A stretch of 64,000 bases of DNA from Escherichia coli (GTDB lineage: Bacteria; Pseudomonadota; Gammaproteobacteria; Enterobacterales; Enterobacteriaceae). Positions 14,494-54,212 of this stretch are shown in pieces. Numbering within the stretch: the stretch's first letter is position 1; the number at the start of each line of letters is the position of its first letter. The notes beneath the pieces are model-generated. The model saw only the letters and a program-made list of their open reading frames with translations. It was not told the DNA's origin and made no database searches. The stretch lies in assembly GCF_024700885.2 (NCBI RefSeq), contig NZ_CP117016.1; one strand, given 5' to 3'. The position numbers and the translations under genes were made by a program.

Positions 14494-16740
14494 CTATAAC
14501 CCTCCGCGAATCAACCCGCCCATGCCGCGACGCTCCATAAAGGCTGCAACCTGATGGCGAACTTCGGTCGCCAGTTGCGCTTCCAGACTACGCTGCGCAA
14601 GATTTTCTGCTTCGGCATAATCAATGCGCCGCAGCAGGTATTTTACGCGCGCTACAGAACGTCCGTTCATAGACAGATGACGATACCCAAGCCCAATGAG
14701 GATTGCCACGCACATGGGATCGCCCGCCATTTCACCGCACAAACGGAGATCGATACCATGTATTTCCGCTTCCCGAGCGATCATCGCCAGAGCTCGTAAC
14801 ATTGCAGGATGAAGACTGTCATAAATGTTCGCCACCCGGGTATTGTTGCGATCAACGGCCAGGATGTATTGAGTCAGATCGTTGGTGCCAACAGAGATAA
14901 AATCGACCCGCTTTGCCAGATGCGGCAGCATAAATACCATTGACGGCACTTCAAGCATGATGCCGATACGTGGTTTGGGAATTTCGTAACCGATCATCTC
15001 CTCGACTTCACGTCCGGCACGTTCAATCAGGCGGCGTGCTTCGTCAACTTCATCGAGGCTGGTGACCATCGGCAACAGAATATTCAGGTTGCCCGTAGCG
15101 GCATTAGCACGCAGCATCGCCCGCACCTGGATCAAGAAGATCTCCGGCTGATCGAGCGTAATGCGAATCCCACGCCAACCCAGGCATGGATTCTCTTCGC
15201 TGATCGGCATGTAAGGCAGCTGCTTATCTGCTCCGACATCCAGCGTACGCAAGGTGACGGGCTTATCATTGAACATTTGCAGCATCCCCTGATACTGCGC
15301 CACCTGTTCTTCTTCCGACGGAAAACCACTTTGCAGCATGAATGGGATTTCAGTGCGATAAAGTCCTATGCCATCAATACGGCTGCCCAGTTTTTCTTCA
15401 TGTTCCGGGCTTAAACCGGCATTGAGCATGACTTTTATACGCTCGCCACTTTTTAACTGCGCGGGTAAATTGACGTCATCTTCCGCCAGACGGCTAAGCT
15501 CAATCTCTTCACTAATTAGTCGCTGATATTCTTGCAGCAGTACCGGCTCCGGATCGACCAGCAATTCACCGCGATAACCATCGACAATCAGCGTCCGACG
15601 ATGCAGCACCGAAGGCTGAATATCCGCGCCCATCACGGTAGGGATCCCCAGCGCACGTACCATGATCGCAGCATGGGAGTTGGCTGCGCCATCGCGCACG
15701 ACAACACCGACTAAGCGATCCTGGGGCAGCTCAGCAAGCGTTGTTGCTGACAGTTCATCTGCCACCAGAATGAAACGTTCCGGCCAGGCGTTCGGCCCTT
15801 GATTAGCGTCATCAAGATGAAACAGCAATCGCTGACCCAGCGCACGTAAATCGCCAGCCCGCTCTTTGAGATAGTTATCGCTTAGCGCGGCAAACTGTTC
15901 GGCAAATTTTTCAATGACCGTTTTTACCGCCCACTCTGCCACCGAGCCTTTATCAACCTCGGCAAACAATTCGCGACGCAGCCGGGTGTCCGAAAGCAGG
16001 TGCGAGTAAAGATCGAAAATAGCCGCCGTTTCTTTTTGTGCACCGGCGGCAAAGCGTTTGCTGTAGCGGCGAAACTCGTTTGCCGCTTCTTCCAGCGCCC
16101 CGGTCAGTCGTTCGCGTTCCAGAGCCGGATCCAGCGTTGATGCCTGATACACCTGTTCCATTAAAGGTAACGTGGCATCCTGCCAGCCTTCGGCAATCGC
16201 TACACCAGGCGCTGCCGGTAATGCACGGATTCGCGTCTGGCGATATTGCCCAAACAAGGCAGTCAACTGCGACTGAGAAAGAATCGCTGCCATCTGGGTG
16301 GCAAGCGTCACCAGGAAGGATTCTTCACTTTCGTCATACTGGCGCAACTCTCGTTGCTGTACCACCAGTACACCAAGCAACTGGCGACGTTGAATAATTG
16401 GTACGCCTAAAAACGCGCGGAAACGTTCTTCTTTTACGGAGGGGATGTATTTGAAGCTGGGGTGCTTTTGCGCATCTGCAAGGTTTATCGGTTCCGCCAG
16501 CCTGCCAACCAGGCCGACGATCCCTTCATCAAACGCGAGCGTTACAGTGCGACCGCGTGGTTTTTTCAGCCCCCGGGTCGCCATCAGGTAGTAACAACGT
16601 CGATCATGATCGGCCAGGTAAACCGAACAGACCTCGGTATCCATCGCAAGACAGATGTCGGTAACCAGAATATTTAACGCCTCATTCAGGCGTGGTGCGC
16701 TGGCTACCTTTTCGACTATTTCGCGCAGGCGAGTGAGCAT
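14494..16740 (-). CDS. ptsP: PEP-protein phosphotransferase enzyme I-Ntr (GAF + EI domains)
   Basis: 748-aa ORF with N-terminal GAF-like domain and C-terminal enzyme I PEP-utilizing domain. Confidence 0.95.
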   Translation of the reverse strand: MLTRLREIVEKVASAPRLNEALNILVTDICLAMDTEVCSVYLADHDRRCYYLMATRGLKKPRGRTVTLAFDEGIVGLVGRLAEPINLADAQKHPSFKYIPSVKEERFRAFLGVPIIQRRQLLGVLVVQQRELRQYDESEESFLVTLATQMAAILSQSQLTALFGQYRQTRIRALPAAPGVAIAEGWQDATLPLMEQVYQASTLDPALERERLTGALEEAANEFRRYSKRFAAGAQKETAAIFDLYSHLLSDTRLRRELFAEVDKGSVAEWAVKTVIEKFAEQFAALSDNYLKERAGDLRALGQRLLFHLDDANQGPNAWPERFILVADELSATTLAELPQDRLVGVVVRDGAANSHAAIMVRALGIPTVMGADIQPSVLHRRTLIVDGYRGELLVDPEPVLLQEYQRLISEEIELSRLAEDDVNLPAQLKSGERIKVMLNAGLSPEHEEKLGSRIDGIGLYRTEIPFMLQSGFPSEEEQVAQYQGMLQMFNDKPVTLRTLDVGADKQLPYMPISEENPCLGWRGIRITLDQPEIFLIQVRAMLRANAATGNLNILLPMVTSLDEVDEARRLIERAGREVEEMIGYEIPKPRIGIMLEVPSMVFMLPHLAKRVDFISVGTNDLTQYILAVDRNNTRVANIYDSLHPAMLRALAMIAREAEIHGIDLRLCGEMAGDPMCVAILIGLGYRHLSMNGRSVARVKYLLRRIDYAEAENLAQRSLEAQLATEVRHQVAAFMERRGMGGLIRGGL

Positions 16741-16752
16741 AATTGGCGTGAC

Positions 16753-17283
16753 TTAACCTCTTTTACGTCGATAAGCAGATGCGTTTTGTGGTTTTGGCGT
16801 ATTTTCCTGCAGTGACATCACCACACTCGCGAACTCTTTCATTACCCTACGGTAGACATCACGTTTAAATGACACCACCTGTCTGACTGGATACCAGTAA
16901 CTTACCCATCGCCAGCCGTCAAACTCTGGTGTACTGCTGGTTTGCATATTGATTTCTGCATCGCCGCTCACCAGCTGCAAGAGAAACCATTTTTGTTTTT
17001 GGCCGATACAAACCGGCTTCGTGTCCCAACGCACCAAACGTTTCGGTAATTTGTAGCGCAACCAGTTACGCGTTGAAGCAAGGATTCGAACGTCTTTACG
17101 GCTTAATCCTACTTCTTCAAACAATTCACGGTACATCGCCTGCTCTGCGGATTCTCCGGGGTTGATTCCGCCTTGCGGAAATTGCCAGGAGTGCTGACCA
17201 AATCGCCGGGCCCACATTACCTGCCCCTGGCGATTACAAATCACGATACCTACGTTTGGGCGGTAGCCATCGTCATCAATCAC
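16753..17283 (-). CDS. rppH: RNA pyrophosphohydrolase (Nudix)
   Basis: 176-aa ORF with Nudix box [22 protein letters not shown]. Confidence 0.95.
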
Positions 17284-17425
17284 CGGACTACCTCAAAATA
17301 AAGCTTTATATACGAATGATTGTTTCATACTCCAGGAAGACGGTAAACCACTCTCTGCAGGGCATTACACACTAATAACAATTGAATAACTCACAGTTAT
17401 GTGCAGAGTTATAAACAGAAGAAGG

Positions 17426-17779
17426 GGTGGATAGCCGTTTTTATTCACCTTTTCTGTGGATAGAGTTGTGAAGAACTACGGAATTACTACGGGAAAACCC
17501 GGAGCATTCTGAATAAGCCCGATATAGACATTTTAAAATATTCATTATCAGTCAATGCATTACATGTGATTTGAGTAATAAAAAAGAGTAATTCGTGACC
17601 CAGGTCACACCTCTCATTTACGGGTTGGCGAAAGATCAACCAATGCGGTATTTATCCACAGAATGTGCCACTAAGTTAAGCACTGAACCACTAAAAACTG
17701 GAGTTTCGTCGCACGTCAAGGCTGTAAATGGAAACAGTAGTGGAGGTTTTTCACAGTTATCCCAGCTTTCTGTGGATAA
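17426..17779. promoter_or_regulatory. DnaA-box cluster consistent with DARS2 (DnaA-reactivating sequence 2)
   Basis: Three closely spaced DnaA-box-like 9-mers at 17426-17434, 17442-17450 and 17455-17463, plus two perfect TTATCCACA boxes in inverted orientation at 17652-17660 and 17771-17779. DARS2 is reported in the intergenic region upstream of mutH. Confidence 0.55.
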
Positions 17780-17967
17780 CATGGTGTAAGATCCTGTTTA
17801 TTTTCAGTGACCAGATTTGGAAAACCCGTTTCAGTGTTGCGCAACTCGATTACCGACAATCTAAAAAGCAATATAAATCAGAGAATTGAACAACGCATGT
17901 GGAAAAAGTTACACTGCGAATATTCGGCACAGAAATGCTGTTTGTTTTTTAACCAAGGTATCATGAC

Positions 17968-18657
17968 ATGTCCCAACCTCGCCCACTGCTCTCTCCTCCC
18001 GAAACTGAAGAACAGTTGTTAGCGCAAGCACAGCAACTTTCTGGTTATACATTGGGAGAACTGGCGGCACTTGCCGGGCTGGTGACGCCAGAGAATTTAA
18101 AACGCGATAAGGGCTGGATTGGCGTGTTACTGGAGATCTGGCTAGGTGCCAGCGCAGGAAGTAAACCTGAGCAAGATTTTGCTGCTCTGGGCGTGGAACT
18201 TAAAACTATCCCTGTGGATAGTCTTGGTCGTCCGCTGGAAACAACATTCGTTTGTGTAGCCCCGTTAACGGGTAATAGCGGGGTGACCTGGGAAACCAGC
18301 CACGTACGCCACAAGCTCAAACGCGTACTGTGGATACCGGTTGAAGGCGAGCGCAGCATCCCGCTGGCGCAGCGTCGCGTAGGATCACCGTTACTGTGGA
18401 GCCCGAATGAAGAGGAAGACCGACAGCTACGCGAAGACTGGGAAGAATTAATGGATATGATTGTTCTCGGTCAGGTTGAGCGGATTACCGCTCGTCACGG
18501 GGAATATTTACAGATACGACCGAAAGCAGCGAATGCGAAAGCGCTGACCGAAGCCATTGGTGCCCGGGGCGAACGGATTCTGACGCTGCCACGCGGCTTT
18601 TATTTGAAGAAGAATTTCACCAGTGCACTACTGGCCCGTCATTTTCTGATCCAGTAG
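17968..18657 (+). CDS. mutH: Methyl-directed mismatch repair endonuclease MutH
   Basis: 229-aa [36 protein letters not shown]. Confidence 0.95.
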
Positions 18658-24407: not shown

Positions 24408-24495
24408 AAAAAAAACCTGCGCATCCGCGCAGGTTGGTGCAAGAGACAGGGTACGAAGAGCGTACCGAATAATCTCACCAATCAATACCTCTGGG
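24408..24495 (-). ncRNA. omrA: Small regulatory RNA OmrA
   Basis: Minus strand reads CCCAGAGGTATTGATTGGTGAGATTATTCGGTACGCTCTTCGTACCCTGTCTCTTGCACCAACCTGCGCGGATGCGCAGGTTTTTTTT (88 nt) with terminal GC hairpin plus U-run; between aas and galR. Confidence 0.85.
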
Positions 24496-24610: not shown

Positions 24611-24692
24611 AAAAAAAACCTGCGCATCTGCGCAGGCTGGTGTAATTCATGTGCTCAACCCGAAGTTGACTTCACCTATCAATACCTCTGGG
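24611..24692 (-). ncRNA. omrB: Small regulatory RNA OmrB
   Basis: Paralogous copy sharing the 5' end CCCAGAGGTATTGAT and the 3' terminator CCTGCGCAGATGCGCAGG plus U-run with omrA; about 115 bp from omrA. Confidence 0.85.
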
Positions 24693-36688: not shown

Positions 36689-36964
36689 GTGGCTTCTGTT
36701 TCTATCAGCTGTCCCTCCTGTTCAGCTACTGACGGGGTGGTGCGTAACGGCAAAAGCACCGCCGGACATCAGCGCTATCTCTGCTCTCACTGCCGTAAAA
36801 CATGGCAACTGCAGTTCACTTACACCGCTTCTCAACCCGGTACGCACCAGAAAATCATTGATATGGCCATGAATGGCGTTGGATGCCGGGCAACTGCCCG
36901 CATTATGGGCGTTGGCCTCAACACGATTTTACGTCACTTAAAAAACTCAGGCCGCAGTCGGTAA
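36689..36964 (+). CDS. insA: IS1 InsA (transposition inhibitor / N-terminal part of InsAB' transposase)
   Basis: 91-aa [43 protein letters not shown] (zinc-finger CxxC...CxxC). Confidence 0.9.
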
Positions 36965-37386
36965 CCTCGCGCATACAGCCGGGCAGTGACGTCATCGTCT
37001 GCGCGGAAATGGACGAACAGTGGGGCTATGTCGGGGCTAAATCGCGCCAGCGCTGGCTGTTTTACGCGTATGACAGTCTCCGGAAGACGGTTGTTGCGCA
37101 CGTATTCGGTGAACGCACTATGGCGACGCTGGGGCGTCTTATGAGCCTGCTGTCACCCTTTGACGTGGTGATATGGATGACGGATGGCTGGCCGCTGTAT
37201 GAATCCCGCCTGAAGGGAAAGCTGCACGTAATCAGCAAGCGATATACGCAGCGAATTGAGCGGCATAACCTGAATCTGAGGCAGCACCTGGCACGGCTGG
37301 GACGGAAGTCGCTGTCGTTCTCAAAATCGGTGGAGCTGCATGACAAAGTCATCGGGCATTATCTGAACATAAAACACTATCAATAA
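36883..37386 (+). CDS. insB: IS1 InsB frame (expressed as InsAB' transposase by -1 frameshift)
   Basis: ORF in the -1 frame relative to insA; slippery A6C motif at 36940-36946 inside the insA/insB overlap. Confidence 0.85.
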
Positions 37387-37638: not shown

Positions 37639-37712
37639 TGGAGCGGGCGAAGGGAATCGAACCCTCGTATAGAGCTTGGGAAGCTCTCGTTCTACCATTG
37701 AACTACGCCCGC
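37639..37712 (-). tRNA. glyU: tRNA-Gly (anticodon CCC)
   Basis: Minus strand reads GCGGGCGTAGTTCAATGGTAGAACGAGAGCTTCCCAAGCTCTATACGAGGGTTCGATTCCCTTCGCCCGCTCCA; cloverleaf with anticodon CCC and encoded CCA end. Confidence 0.9.
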
Positions 37713-53633: not shown

Positions 53634-54212
53634 ATGTCAGCCATCGACTGTATAATTACCGCTGCCGGATTATCATCAAGAATGGGGCAATGGAAAATGA
53701 TGTTACCCTGGCAACAGGGAACAATTCTTGATACAAGTATCAAAAATGCGTTGCAGTTTTGTAGCCGAATTATTTTAGTCACCGGCTATCGTGGTAATGA
53801 ACTGCACGAGCGTTATGCGAACCAGAGCAATATCACTATTATCCACAACCCAGATTATGCGCAGGGTTTACTAACATCAGTAAAGGCCGCAGTACCCGCG
53901 GTAAAAACAGAATATTGTTTTCTCACCCACGGTGACATGCCTACCCTCACCATCGATATTTTTAGAAAAATCTGGTCGTTACGAAATGATGGCGCAATAC
54001 TGCCACTCCATAATGGCATTCCCGGCCATCCGATTTTAGTGTCAAAGCCATGCCTGATGCAGGCAATCCAGCGTCCCAATATCACCAATATGCGTCAGGC
54101 ACTCCTTATGGGAGATCATTATTCCGTCGAAATAGAAAATGCAGAAATAATTTTAGATATTGATACTCCGGACGACTTTATTACAGCGCAAAAAAGGTAT
54201 ACTAAAATTTAG
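53634..54212 (+). CDS. mocA: Molybdenum cofactor cytidylyltransferase (MobA-like NTP transferase)
   Basis: 192-aa ORF MSAIDCIITAAGLSSRMG (nucleotidyltransferase G-rich loop). Confidence 0.85.
   Translation: MSAIDCIITAAGLSSRMGQWKMMLPWQQGTILDTSIKNALQFCSRIILVTGYRGNELHERYANQSNITIIHNPDYAQGLLTSVKAAVPAVKTEYCFLTHGDMPTLTIDIFRKIWSLRNDGAILPLHNGIPGHPILVSKPCLMQAIQRPNITNMRQALLMGDHYSVEIENAEIILDIDTPDDFITAQKRYTKI

Follow-up and report, generated by a model that had tools for sequence, protein, structure and literature searches.

The 455-bp feature at positions 17418-17872 of the 64,000-nt stretch of E. coli DNA analysed here (the window) is, we are nearly certain, DARS2, which is the second DnaA-reactivating sequence on the chromosome of E. 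coli: a non-coding site that converts ADP-DnaA into initiation-competent ATP-DnaA. Few non-coding sites on the chromosome time replication initiation in E. coli, and DARS2 is one of them; it regenerates ATP-DnaA before each round. An earlier note on this DNA had already named DARS2 correctly. Since the rppH-mutH DARS2 is a well-studied site, the identification is not new; recognising the element in the raw window is correct annotation without new biology, and the possible added value of our analysis lies in comparative details, such as the spacings of the elements and a second core-like triad. The identification is carried by direct observations on location, sequence identity, element-by-element mapping, enrichment and the cross-genus conservation of the elements and their spacing, and we found no evidence that contradicts it.

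The feature lies in the 684-bp spacer (17284-17967, by ORF calls and RefSeq annotation) between rppH (also known as ygpD or nudH; 16753-17283, minus strand, GTG start), which encodes RNA pyrophosphohydrolase and is annotated by RefSeq in strains MLI114 and MG1655, and mutH (17968-18657, plus strand), within the gene order ptsP-rppH-spacer-mutH-ygdQ-ygdR-tas. With rppH ending at 17283 and mutH starting at 17968, the spacer has the length stated in the earlier note. Of 5426 complete E. coli genomes, 5424 contain this spacer; it matches its MLI114 counterpart at 100% identity and shares 98.4% identity with that of MG1655, with zero indels. The literature likewise places DARS2 upstream of mutH, at a conserved relative distance from oriC and on the replichore opposite to that carrying datA and DARS1 (PMC4585315). 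An Rfam scan of the whole window gave no match inside the spacer, leaving an sRNA reading unsupported.

We placed the boundaries of DARS2 via the primers of Kasho 2014 (Suppl. Table S1, PMC4245941). The full-length DARS2 of published experiments runs from primer MutH-4 (17418-17436) to primer MutH-2 (17854-17872), and the minimal DARS2 of the ΔRight construct, comprising the core, IBS1-2 and FBS2-3, occupies 17418-17650. All the reagents that define the 455-bp ends, ΔCore, ΔRight, the critical 21-mer and the box IV, V and VI substitutions, as well as the oligonucleotides for IBS1-2, FBS1, FBS2-3, FBS4-5 and FBS6, fall within 17418-17872 with at most two mismatches. A DARS2-like element between rppH and mutH had been proposed at 17426-17779, and the published 455-bp element encloses that interval; when we checked whether the published DARS2 maps elsewhere, the defining primers fell on the same interval.

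The essential core, consisting of DnaA boxes I-III, corresponds to the ΔCore interval at 17441-17475 (plus strand): the deletion made with the inside-out primers MutH-14 and MutH-15 is bounded by 17440 on the left and 17476 on the right, and the ΔCore end points used in Frimodt-Moller 2015 (PMC4585315) are the same as those of Kasho 2014. Box I (TTATTCACC, 17441-17449, plus strand, 8/9) stands head-to-head, across a 5-bp spacer, with box II (CTATCCACA, reading TGTGGATAG on the plus strand; 17455-17463, minus strand, 8/9), which is half of a 'double DnaA box' described under a DnaA ChIP-seq peak. Box III (TTCTTCACA, 17467-17475, minus strand, 8/9) follows box II head-to-tail after 3 bp. This triad scores 24/27, the highest value in the 64-kb window. 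The earlier note had pointed to three 9-mers at 17426-17463; these are present and in mixed orientation, but they are not the core triple, since the leftmost lies outside the published core and the third core box, at 17467-17475, had been missed. Which three 9-mers make up the core is the sole error in that interpretation. The leftmost 9-mer (17426-17434, minus strand; GGTGGATAG, reverse complement CTATCCACC) matches TTATCCACA at 7/9 positions. We rejected it as a core box: it is kept in the inactive ΔCore construct, and in five other genera its mean identity is 0.33 with zero invariant columns.

A core adjoining mutH and/or rppH was found, with fixed spacing, in Pantoea, Enterobacter, Serratia, Yersinia and Photorhabdus. 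These five loci were picked with a pattern in which parts of the core are fixed, and the conservation of the core is therefore partly by construction; this applies to the mean identity to E. coli of 0.89 for box I, part of which was fixed in the pattern.

To the right of the core, the elements follow in the published order. Box IV (TTATTCAGA, 17508-17516, minus strand, 8/9), flanked by the substitution primers Ksh-30 and Ksh-31, is dispensable and poorly conserved across genera (0.44), and boxes IV-VI as a group are dispensable on plasmids (Kasho 2014, PMC4245941). The two essential IHF sites, which both match the IHF consensus and are abutted by the subIBS1-2 primer Ksh-16, IBS1 (TAAAATATTCATT, 17534-17546) and IBS2 (AGTCAATGCATTA, 17550-17562; sequence given in Frimodt-Moller 2015, Fig. 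S10), are 3 bp apart and both identical to MG1655. Their centre lies ~90 bp from the core and ~92 bp from FBS2-3, described as 'equidistant' in the literature, and their conservation across genera is moderate (0.62 and 0.42, in an AT-rich part of the alignment that is unreliable). Next comes the dispensable FBS1 (GAGTAATTCGTGACC, 17586-17600), a perfect Fis consensus located by the oligonucleotides FIS-1U and FISsub-5U. The essential Fis sites FBS2 (GGCGAAAGATCAACC, 17627-17641) and FBS3 (GATCAACCAATGCGG, 17634-17648) were placed through MutH-17/24/11/25 and F23U (Frimodt-Moller 2015, Figs S8 and S9), the critical 21-mer around them corresponding to 17630-17650; the cross-genus identity of 0.77 for FBS2 was not imposed by the search pattern. 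The dependence on IHF and Fis suggested in the earlier note agrees with the published DARS2 mechanism.

Box V (TTATCCACA, 17652-17660, plus strand, 9/9), flanked by the substitution primers Ksh-32 and Ksh-33, is invariant across six genera (E. coli, Pantoea, Enterobacter, Serratia, Yersinia and Photorhabdus) and in each of them lies at exactly 211 bp from box I, features that the search pattern did not impose. It sits in the FBS2-5 fragment (17622-17673, plus strand, placed by hand from the 52-nt oligonucleotide FBS2-5-f of Miyoshi 2021) together with the low-affinity boxes V-c, V-b and V-a, a negative-feedback module in which Fis is displaced by ATP-DnaA (PMC8682772). Box VI (TTATCCACA, 17771-17779, minus strand, 9/9), flanked by Ksh-34 and Ksh-35, is likewise invariant in the six genera, and this was not imposed by the search pattern either. 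The two perfect boxes in inverted orientation 110 bp apart that had been noticed before are these published boxes V and VI; one further perfect copy exists in the 64 kb. Further right lies the dispensable FBS6 (GTTTCAGTGTTGCGC, 17828-17842; primers Ksh-9 and Ksh-10, oligonucleotide FIS-4U).

For the MG1655 allele, the literature shows that DARS2, together with IHF and Fis, stimulates the dissociation of ADP from ADP-DnaA in vitro, and that it increases ATP-DnaA and initiation in vivo. Extra copies cause over-initiation, while deletion of the core reduces the ATP-DnaA fraction from 72% to 42% and lowers ori/mass; cells that lose DARS2 have a lower concentration of origins and a lower competitive fitness, in the mouse gut as well (PMC4585315). 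The mechanism published for MG1655 (PMC4245941; PMC8682772, Miyoshi 2021; PMC11724364, Kasho 2025) would, given the near-identity of the two sequences, operate here as follows. Three ADP-DnaA molecules would occupy core boxes I-III (17441-17475), those on boxes I and II head-to-head and the one on box III stabilising them head-to-tail. IHF, aided by negative supercoiling, would then bind IBS1-2 (17534-17562), placed roughly halfway from the core to the Fis sites, and bend the DNA so as to set Fis at FBS2-3 (17627-17648) against the DnaA dimer. ADP would be released, and apo-DnaA would leave the DNA and then bind ATP. Finally, accumulated ATP-DnaA would oligomerise from box V (17652-17660) over the flanking low-affinity boxes, displacing Fis and switching the site off. 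IHF binding would tie DARS2 activity to the pre-initiation stage of the cell cycle, and because Fis is abundant only in growing cells, activity would also be tied to growth phase.

The MG1655 DARS2 occupies the same rppH/ygpD-mutH locus, has the same length and is identical at 447 of 455 bp. Boxes I-VI, IBS1-2, FBS1 and FBS2 are identical and all inter-element distances are equal; the differences are eight SNPs (17420, 17568, 17573, 17580, 17647, 17831, 17856 and 17860), none of them unfavourable at consensus-constrained positions. The C-to-G change at 17647 falls on the unconstrained position 14 of FBS3, in the critical 21-mer, and also within the low-affinity box V-b, where the 52-bp FBS2-5 fragment differs from MG1655 by one base. 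The G-to-T change at 17831 affects consensus position 4 (Y) of FBS6 and improves the Fis match. The 80-bp haplotype with G at 17647 is a minority type, carried by 209 of 5422 genomes versus 3599 with the MG1655 type. From this comparison we infer that the allele of this strain would have the same biochemical activity as MG1655 DARS2.

In published ChIP data for MG1655, DnaA, IHF and Fis all occupy DARS2 in vivo. The DnaA ChIP-seq profile has three peaks here, with coverage of 78, 199 and 213 times control, levels similar to those at oriC and datA; converted via NC_000913.3 coordinates, the peaks correspond to ~17430, ~17612 and ~17807 in the window. The strongest peak of the locus adjoins a second core-like triad (17757-17791, plus strand), composed of TTATCCCAG, 5 bp, TGTGGATAA (box VI), 3 bp and GGTGTAAGA. 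The triad scores 22/27, and besides the core it is the sole position in the 64 kb that scores at least 22, where shuffles expect 0.05. Six enterobacterial genera have it on the same strand, with 316 bp separating it from the core (315 in Yersinia) and 105 bp from box V, distances of about 30 and 10 helical turns, and it is absent from DARS1 loci. Also in the dispensable right half is a 23-bp conserved block (GTCAAGGCTGTAAATGGAAACAG, 17715-17737) with a mean cross-genus identity of 0.90 and 83% invariant columns, compared with 0.46 in the adjacent 53 bp.

We found no description of the second triad in the DARS literature covered, which does not extend to Fujimitsu 2009, the original DARS paper. 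On DnaA box VI, boxes IV-VI and DARS3, apart from Kasho 2014 and a single speculative mention, our literature search came up empty. As an autonomous DARS the triad is disfavoured: the ΔCore plasmid still carries it and is inactive, which counts against such a role. It could be a DnaA-loading or regulatory module for the timing of DARS2 on the chromosome, and it could be related to the 'Fis-dependent third DARS' postulated by Kasho 2014. A tentative, rather unlikely reading is that the 'dispensable' right half would be under selection as a phased component of the DARS2 nucleoprotein machine, not filler. The exact 211-bp and 316-bp spacings together with the second triad suggest a selected chromosomal element that is larger and more rigidly built than the minimal DARS2 defined on plasmids.

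DnaA is known to act as a transcription regulator and to bind upstream of genes. The boxes, notably the cluster around box VI that precedes mutH by 190 bp, might accordingly be read mainly as an operator of mutH or rppH and not as a nucleotide-exchange site, all the more as the locus figures as 'upstream of mutH' in the ChIP-seq paper and as the right half with boxes IV-VI, dispensable for DARS2 activity on plasmids and nonetheless holding strongly conserved blocks, leaves room for a second role. We consider this improbable. Experiments on the near-identical MG1655 sequence, both in vitro and in vivo, have demonstrated nucleotide exchange by the left half; a sigma-70 promoter scan of 17200-18050 gave zero hits; our literature search found no published evidence for DnaA regulating mutH; and the conserved blocks hold an exact distance to a core 316 bp away, a constraint for which a simple operator has no use. 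An operator is excluded as the only explanation; it may be an additional role of the right half.

Returning to DARS2 as a non-coding site, three small ORFs overlap it. In nearly every E. coli genome, RefSeq annotates ygdT, a 48-aa ORF on the minus strand (17636-17782) that spans boxes VI to V, so that the conservation in 17636-17789 could be ascribed to a small protein gene, either ygdT or the 64-aa plus-strand ORF, with the DnaA boxes incidental. We regard this as very improbable. The ygdT start codon is missing in four of the five other genera and in-frame stops occur in three of the five; one of the few SNPs relative to MG1655 is non-synonymous in ygdT (G46R); conservation is limited to short blocks coinciding with the DnaA boxes, the intervening 53 bp being at background (0.46); and the DNA blocks yield equal 'protein' similarity on both strands. 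The two plus-strand ORFs of the earlier note (17595-17789 and 17807-18022) both exist in the window, and its view that they are probably non-coding is supported: RefSeq annotates neither, and their cross-genus similarity has the same DNA-level block pattern as the opposite strand. An NCBIfam scan of ygdT and these two ORFs matched no family, and a literature search on ygdT returned nothing relevant to the rppH-mutH locus. The overlapping small ORFs, RefSeq-annotated ygdT included, are not conserved as ORFs, and ygdT is probably not a real gene.

The core layout, box I (plus), 5 bp, box II (minus), 3 bp, box III (minus), is the same as that of DARS1 in the bioD-uvrB spacer, which in MG1655 reads TTATCCACT/attcc/TGTGGATAA/cca/TGTGTATTA. 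Both sites carry out the same nucleotide-exchange chemistry; however, DARS1 is ~101 bp long, has higher-affinity boxes I and II and needs neither IHF nor Fis, while the core boxes of DARS2 are weaker and its activity relies on IBS1-2 and FBS2-3. DARS1 loci also lack the box V module. The box V module, with V-a, V-b and V-c, resembles the DnaA-oligomerisation region of oriC, in that a high-affinity box nucleates cooperative ATP-DnaA binding and neighbouring low-affinity boxes are spaced by 2-3 bp, and both oriC and DARS2 employ IHF bending and DiaA stimulation. Unlike oriC, DARS2 has no duplex-unwinding element or replication start, and the head-to-head box pair is specific to DARS. The chromosomal locus datA shares with DARS2 a non-coding set of clustered DnaA boxes, an IHF site, control over the nucleotide state of DnaA and very high DnaA occupancy. 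Were the rppH-mutH cluster a sink that passively titrates DnaA, or a site that inactivates it as datA does, so that free or active DnaA falls, such occupancy and the pairing of boxes with an IHF site would be expected from it as well, but this too is a most improbable reading: datA acts in the opposite direction, promoting hydrolysis of DnaA-bound ATP after initiation, does not require Fis and has another box arrangement, with the head-to-head boxes I and II being a DARS signature, and the published phenotypes of extra DARS2 copies and of core deletion are the opposite of those of a sink or a datA-like site.

The density of DnaA boxes also supports the identification as DARS2. Exact TTWTNCACA occurs nine times in the window, four of them in the spacer, against an expectation of ~5.7 per 64 kb and roughly 0.06 per 684 bp, and with at most one mismatch the spacer holds ten DnaA boxes compared with a mean of 1.14 (sd 1.3) per 684-bp window, the maximum across the 64 kb. 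That lone matches are this common might suggest a functionless chance cluster in an AT-rich spacer, which the local density, a triad geometry score far beyond shuffles, a spacing exactly conserved across six genera and the published function render next to impossible.

Just beyond the published left end of DARS2 lie two further conserved blocks, ATAACTCACAG (17386-17396) and AGTTATAAACA (17407-17417). They are absent upstream of DARS1 cores, and inspection by eye of these two and of the 17715-17737 block for -35/-10 elements on either strand gave no convincing match. Photorhabdus, in whose fetched locus no match to rppH was found, retains both, and their mean cross-genus identities are 0.95 and 0.98.

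In this Escherichia coli window, the spacer between rppH (16753-17283, minus strand) and mutH (17968-18657, plus strand) is 684 bp long (17284-17967) and follows, in the gene order read from the ORFs, ptsP (14494-16740, minus strand) and rppH, with mutH, ygdQ, ygdR and tas coming after it. Of 5426 complete E. coli genomes, 5424 carry it; the copy in strain MLI114 is 100% identical, and the one in MG1655 (NC_000913.3 2968978-2969661) differs through 11 substitutions, without any indel. Using the oligonucleotide tables of Kasho et al. 2014 (PMC4245941) and Miyoshi et al. 2021 (PMC8682772), we transferred the published DnaA-reactivating site DARS2 onto the window by script, base-exactly. The 455-bp DARS2 corresponds to 17418-17872 (primers MutH-4 and MutH-2), the minimal active ΔRight construct to 17418-17650 (MutH-4 and MutH-11), the critical 21-mer to 17630-17650 (MutH-17/24/11/25) and the ΔCore deletion to 17441-17475 (MutH-14 and MutH-15), with the same end points as the chromosomal DARS2 deletion of Frimodt-Moller et al. 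2015 (PMC4585315). The published DARS2 encloses the interval (17426-17779) for which the earlier note had proposed a DARS2-like DnaA-box cluster; a location in some other interval, which would have refuted the note, is not what the mapping shows. The element is the known DARS2: the observation is confirmed, its interpretation as DARS2 is supported and, the finding being already known, its interest is low.

The same tables place DnaA box IV at 17508-17516 (minus strand; Ksh-30, Ksh-31), box V at 17652-17660 (plus strand; Ksh-32, Ksh-33), box VI at 17771-17779 (minus strand; Ksh-34, Ksh-35) and the Fis-binding sites FBS1 and FBS6 at 17586-17600 (FIS-1U, FISsub-5U) and 17828-17842 (Ksh-9, Ksh-10, FIS-4U). 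Site sequences in Frimodt-Moller et al. 2015 (PMC4585315) locate FBS2 (17627-17641), FBS3 (17634-17648) and the IHF-binding site IBS2 (17550-17562); IBS1 (17534-17546) lies 3 bp to the left of IBS2, in agreement with the published description. Boxes V and VI are the two perfect TTATCCACA boxes in inverted orientation, 110 bp apart, that had been picked out from the sequence.

The three 9-mers of the proposed left-hand cluster can be read in the sequence as claimed (GGTGGATAG, 17426-17434; TTATTCACC, 17441-17449; TGTGGATAG, 17455-17463), but only the latter two belong to the DARS2 core. Box I is TTATTCACC (17441-17449, plus strand), followed after 5 bp by box II, CTATCCACA (17455-17463, minus strand), and after a further 3 bp by box III, TTCTTCACA (17467-17475, minus strand). 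The 17426-17434 9-mer falls outside the core: it matches at only 7 of 9 positions, is still present in the inactive ΔCore construct and has no invariant column across five other genera. The core of DARS1 in MG1655 has exactly the same geometry, reading TTATCCACT/attcc/TGTGGATAA/cca/TGTGTATTA, and in a DnaA ChIP-seq study (PMC11317965) TTCTTCACAactCTATCCACA is independently given as the double box beneath the leftmost DARS2 peak.

The abundance of DnaA boxes in the spacer far exceeds chance. Four of the nine exact TTWTNCACA matches in the window fall within it, with 5.7 expected in the whole 64 kb, and its 10 boxes with at most one mismatch (mean 1.14, sd 1.3, per 684-bp window) are the maximum of any 684-bp stretch. 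Two exact matches for which we found no name in the DARS2 literature covered are TTTTTCACA (17747-17755, plus strand), within the 455-bp DARS2 and not conserved in the other genera, and TTTTCCACA (17898-17906, minus strand), outside it, 62 bp 5' of the start of mutH and, to judge from the alignment, apparently not conserved. The only other perfect TTATCCACA in the window (53839-53847, plus strand) lies isolated inside mocA, as assigned by collinearity with MLI114, and is probably there by chance.

The defined protein sites all match those of MG1655, save for one base in FBS3/box V-b and another in FBS6, which is dispensable; we therefore infer for this allele the mechanism established for MG1655 DARS2 (PMC4245941, PMC8682772, PMC11724364). 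ADP-DnaA would bind boxes I-III, where the protomers on boxes I and II, paired head-to-head and stabilised by the one on box III, would change so that ADP is released; the apo-DnaA would then leave the DNA and take up ATP. Negative supercoiling would stabilise a DNA loop and IHF binding, the loop allowing Fis (through Gln68) to contact the DnaA dimer, and ATP-DnaA on box V would spread over the low-affinity boxes V-a, V-b and V-c and evict Fis, a negative feedback. In contrast to DARS1, DARS2 has a core of low-affinity boxes that by itself shows almost no activity, and it depends on IHF bound to IBS1-2 and on Fis bound to FBS2-3 (PMC4245941). Measured centre to centre, the core lies ~90 bp from IBS1-2, and IBS1-2 ~92 bp from FBS2-3, which fits the published description of these elements as 'equidistant' (PMC11724364).

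DnaA ChIP-seq in MG1655 found three peaks at DARS2 with 78-, 199- and 213-fold coverage, comparable to oriC and datA (PMC11317965). The footnote to Table 1 of that study names NC_000913.2, but its DARS1, DARS2 and oriC coordinates fit the right spacers (rppH-mutH for DARS2 and bioD-uvrB for DARS1) only as NC_000913.3; read in this way, the DARS2 peaks would fall at ~17430, ~17612 and ~17807 in the window.

Eight SNPs distinguish the 455-bp DARS2 from that of MG1655. C->G at 17647 lies within the critical 21-mer, at position 14 (N, unconstrained) of the essential FBS3, and also inside the low-affinity box V-b. Of 5422 complete E. coli genomes, only 209 have the window-type 80-mer around it, whereas the MG1655 type is found in 3599 of 5424. 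In Frimodt-Moller et al. 2015 (PMC4585315), the Fig. S9 legend defines S as C/G, which suggests a C/G variant at some position among the 59 strains of that study. G->T at 17831 improves the consensus match at position 4 of FBS6, which is dispensable.

Scanning genome contigs with the core pattern TTATNCACN6TGTGGATAN4TGTG yielded at least 120 stretches, the context of which we assigned by tblastn with the window's proteins. Among the matches listed, 12 adjoin uvrB and/or bioD and represent DARS1, and five adjoin mutH and/or rppH: the DARS2 orthologues of Pantoea (L023), Enterobacter (L071), Serratia (L072), Yersinia (L095) and Photorhabdus (L109). The other 103 matches listed, from Gamma- and Betaproteobacteria, are in other contexts and include Pseudomonas, Legionella, Xanthomonadales and Burkholderiales, among others; by eye, a downstream TTGGTCAAAAA-like motif seems common to many of them. 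A wide occurrence of DARS-like sequences in proteobacteria has already been stated in the literature. One Legionella nagasakiensis genome carries at least eight pattern matches on seven stretches (L056-L062), and since the flanks of the two inspected loci (L058 and L060) are near-identical, this suggests a repeated or mobile element with a DARS-like triad.

We aligned the five orthologues with the window and scored identity per element. Against a spacer mean of 0.53, box V, box VI and the 5-bp spacer between boxes I and II (1.00 each) and FBS2 (0.77) stand clearly above background; boxes I-III reach 0.89-0.93, partly by ascertainment, the loci having been chosen by the core pattern. At or below background are box IV (0.44), FBS1 (0.43) and FBS6 (0.25), all published as dispensable. 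In each of the six genera, box V lies exactly 211 bp from box I, though most of the sequence between them is not conserved. The comparison also brought out modestly interesting leads rather than results. Just left of the published boundary at 17418, the blocks ATAACTCACAG (17386-17396) and AGTTATAAACA (17407-17417) are nearly invariant in the six genera; DARS1 cores lack them on their upstream side, and the fetched Photorhabdus locus keeps them yet has no rppH detectable by tblastn. In the 'dispensable' right half, a 23-bp block, GTCAAGGCTGTAAATGGAAACAG (17715-17737), has 83% invariant columns in the six genera; it has no promoter-like match and corresponds to no site named in the DARS2 literature covered.

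A further lead is a second triad around box VI. Scanning both strands of the whole 64 kb for the core arrangement (9-mer on the plus strand, 5 bp, 9-mer on the minus strand, 3 bp, 9-mer on the minus strand) gave at least 22 of 27 matches at only two positions, the core (24) and 17757-17791 (22), with 0.05 expected from mononucleotide shuffles. The second triad, TTATCCCAG/ctttc/TGTGGATAA (box VI)/cat/GGTGTAAGA, shares the strand of the core, from which it is 316 bp away (315 in Yersinia). Across the six genera it scores 21-23, its three 9-mers having conservation of 0.89, 1.00 and 0.96, and it is absent from DARS1 loci. Conserved blocks flank it (17715-17737 and 17792-17802), and the strongest DnaA ChIP peak of the locus in MG1655 (PMC11317965) sits beside it. 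The distances of 211 bp (box I to box V), 105 bp (box V to the second triad) and 316 bp (core to second triad) approximate 20, 10 and 30 helical turns (multiples near 10.5 bp), which would place these sites in helical phase. Two published constructs speak against an autonomous function of the second triad: the ΔCore plasmid retains it but has no activity, and ΔRight lacks it but is active. Kasho 2014 (PMC4245941) refers to a still unidentified 'Fis-dependent third DARS', a coincidence that we merely flag. In the DARS2 literature covered, to which Fujimitsu 2009 does not belong, we found no description of the second triad, the two left blocks or the 17715-17737 block.

The only RefSeq feature inside the spacer is ygdT, a 48-aa ORF (17636-17782, minus strand) in which one SNP relative to MG1655 changes residue 46 from G to R. 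Because it covers exactly the stretch running from box VI to box V, and because outside Escherichia it is not kept as an ORF (in the other genera its frame lacks the start codon in four of five cases and has in-frame stops in three of five), ygdT is probably an annotation artefact over DARS2. The two plus-strand ORFs that had been reported and judged probably non-coding are indeed present (17595-17789, 64 aa, and 17807-18022, 71 aa), and that judgement holds up: neither they nor ygdT have an NCBIfam match, the 71-aa ORF shows no cross-genus conservation, and the 64-aa ORF and ygdT give similar tblastn scores because both translate the same conserved DNA blocks.

Between DARS2 and mutH, ~20 bp 5' of the start codon, lies a terminator-like hairpin, CGGCACAGAAATGCTG followed by TTTGTTTTTT (17925-17950, plus strand); to judge from the alignment, the genera seem to have the T-run and AACC partly in common, but not the stem. 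Elsewhere in the window, an IS1 element (InsA and InsB ORFs; 36689-37386, plus strand) lies between yqeH and tRNA-Gly(CCC) (37639-37712, minus strand). Since K-12 has the yqeI-ygeQ genes, an ETT2 remnant, at this site, the strain appears to be without most of the ETT2-remnant island. The OmrA and OmrB sRNA genes (24408-24495 and 24611-24692, minus strand) are found in the aas-galR spacer, as expected in E. coli.
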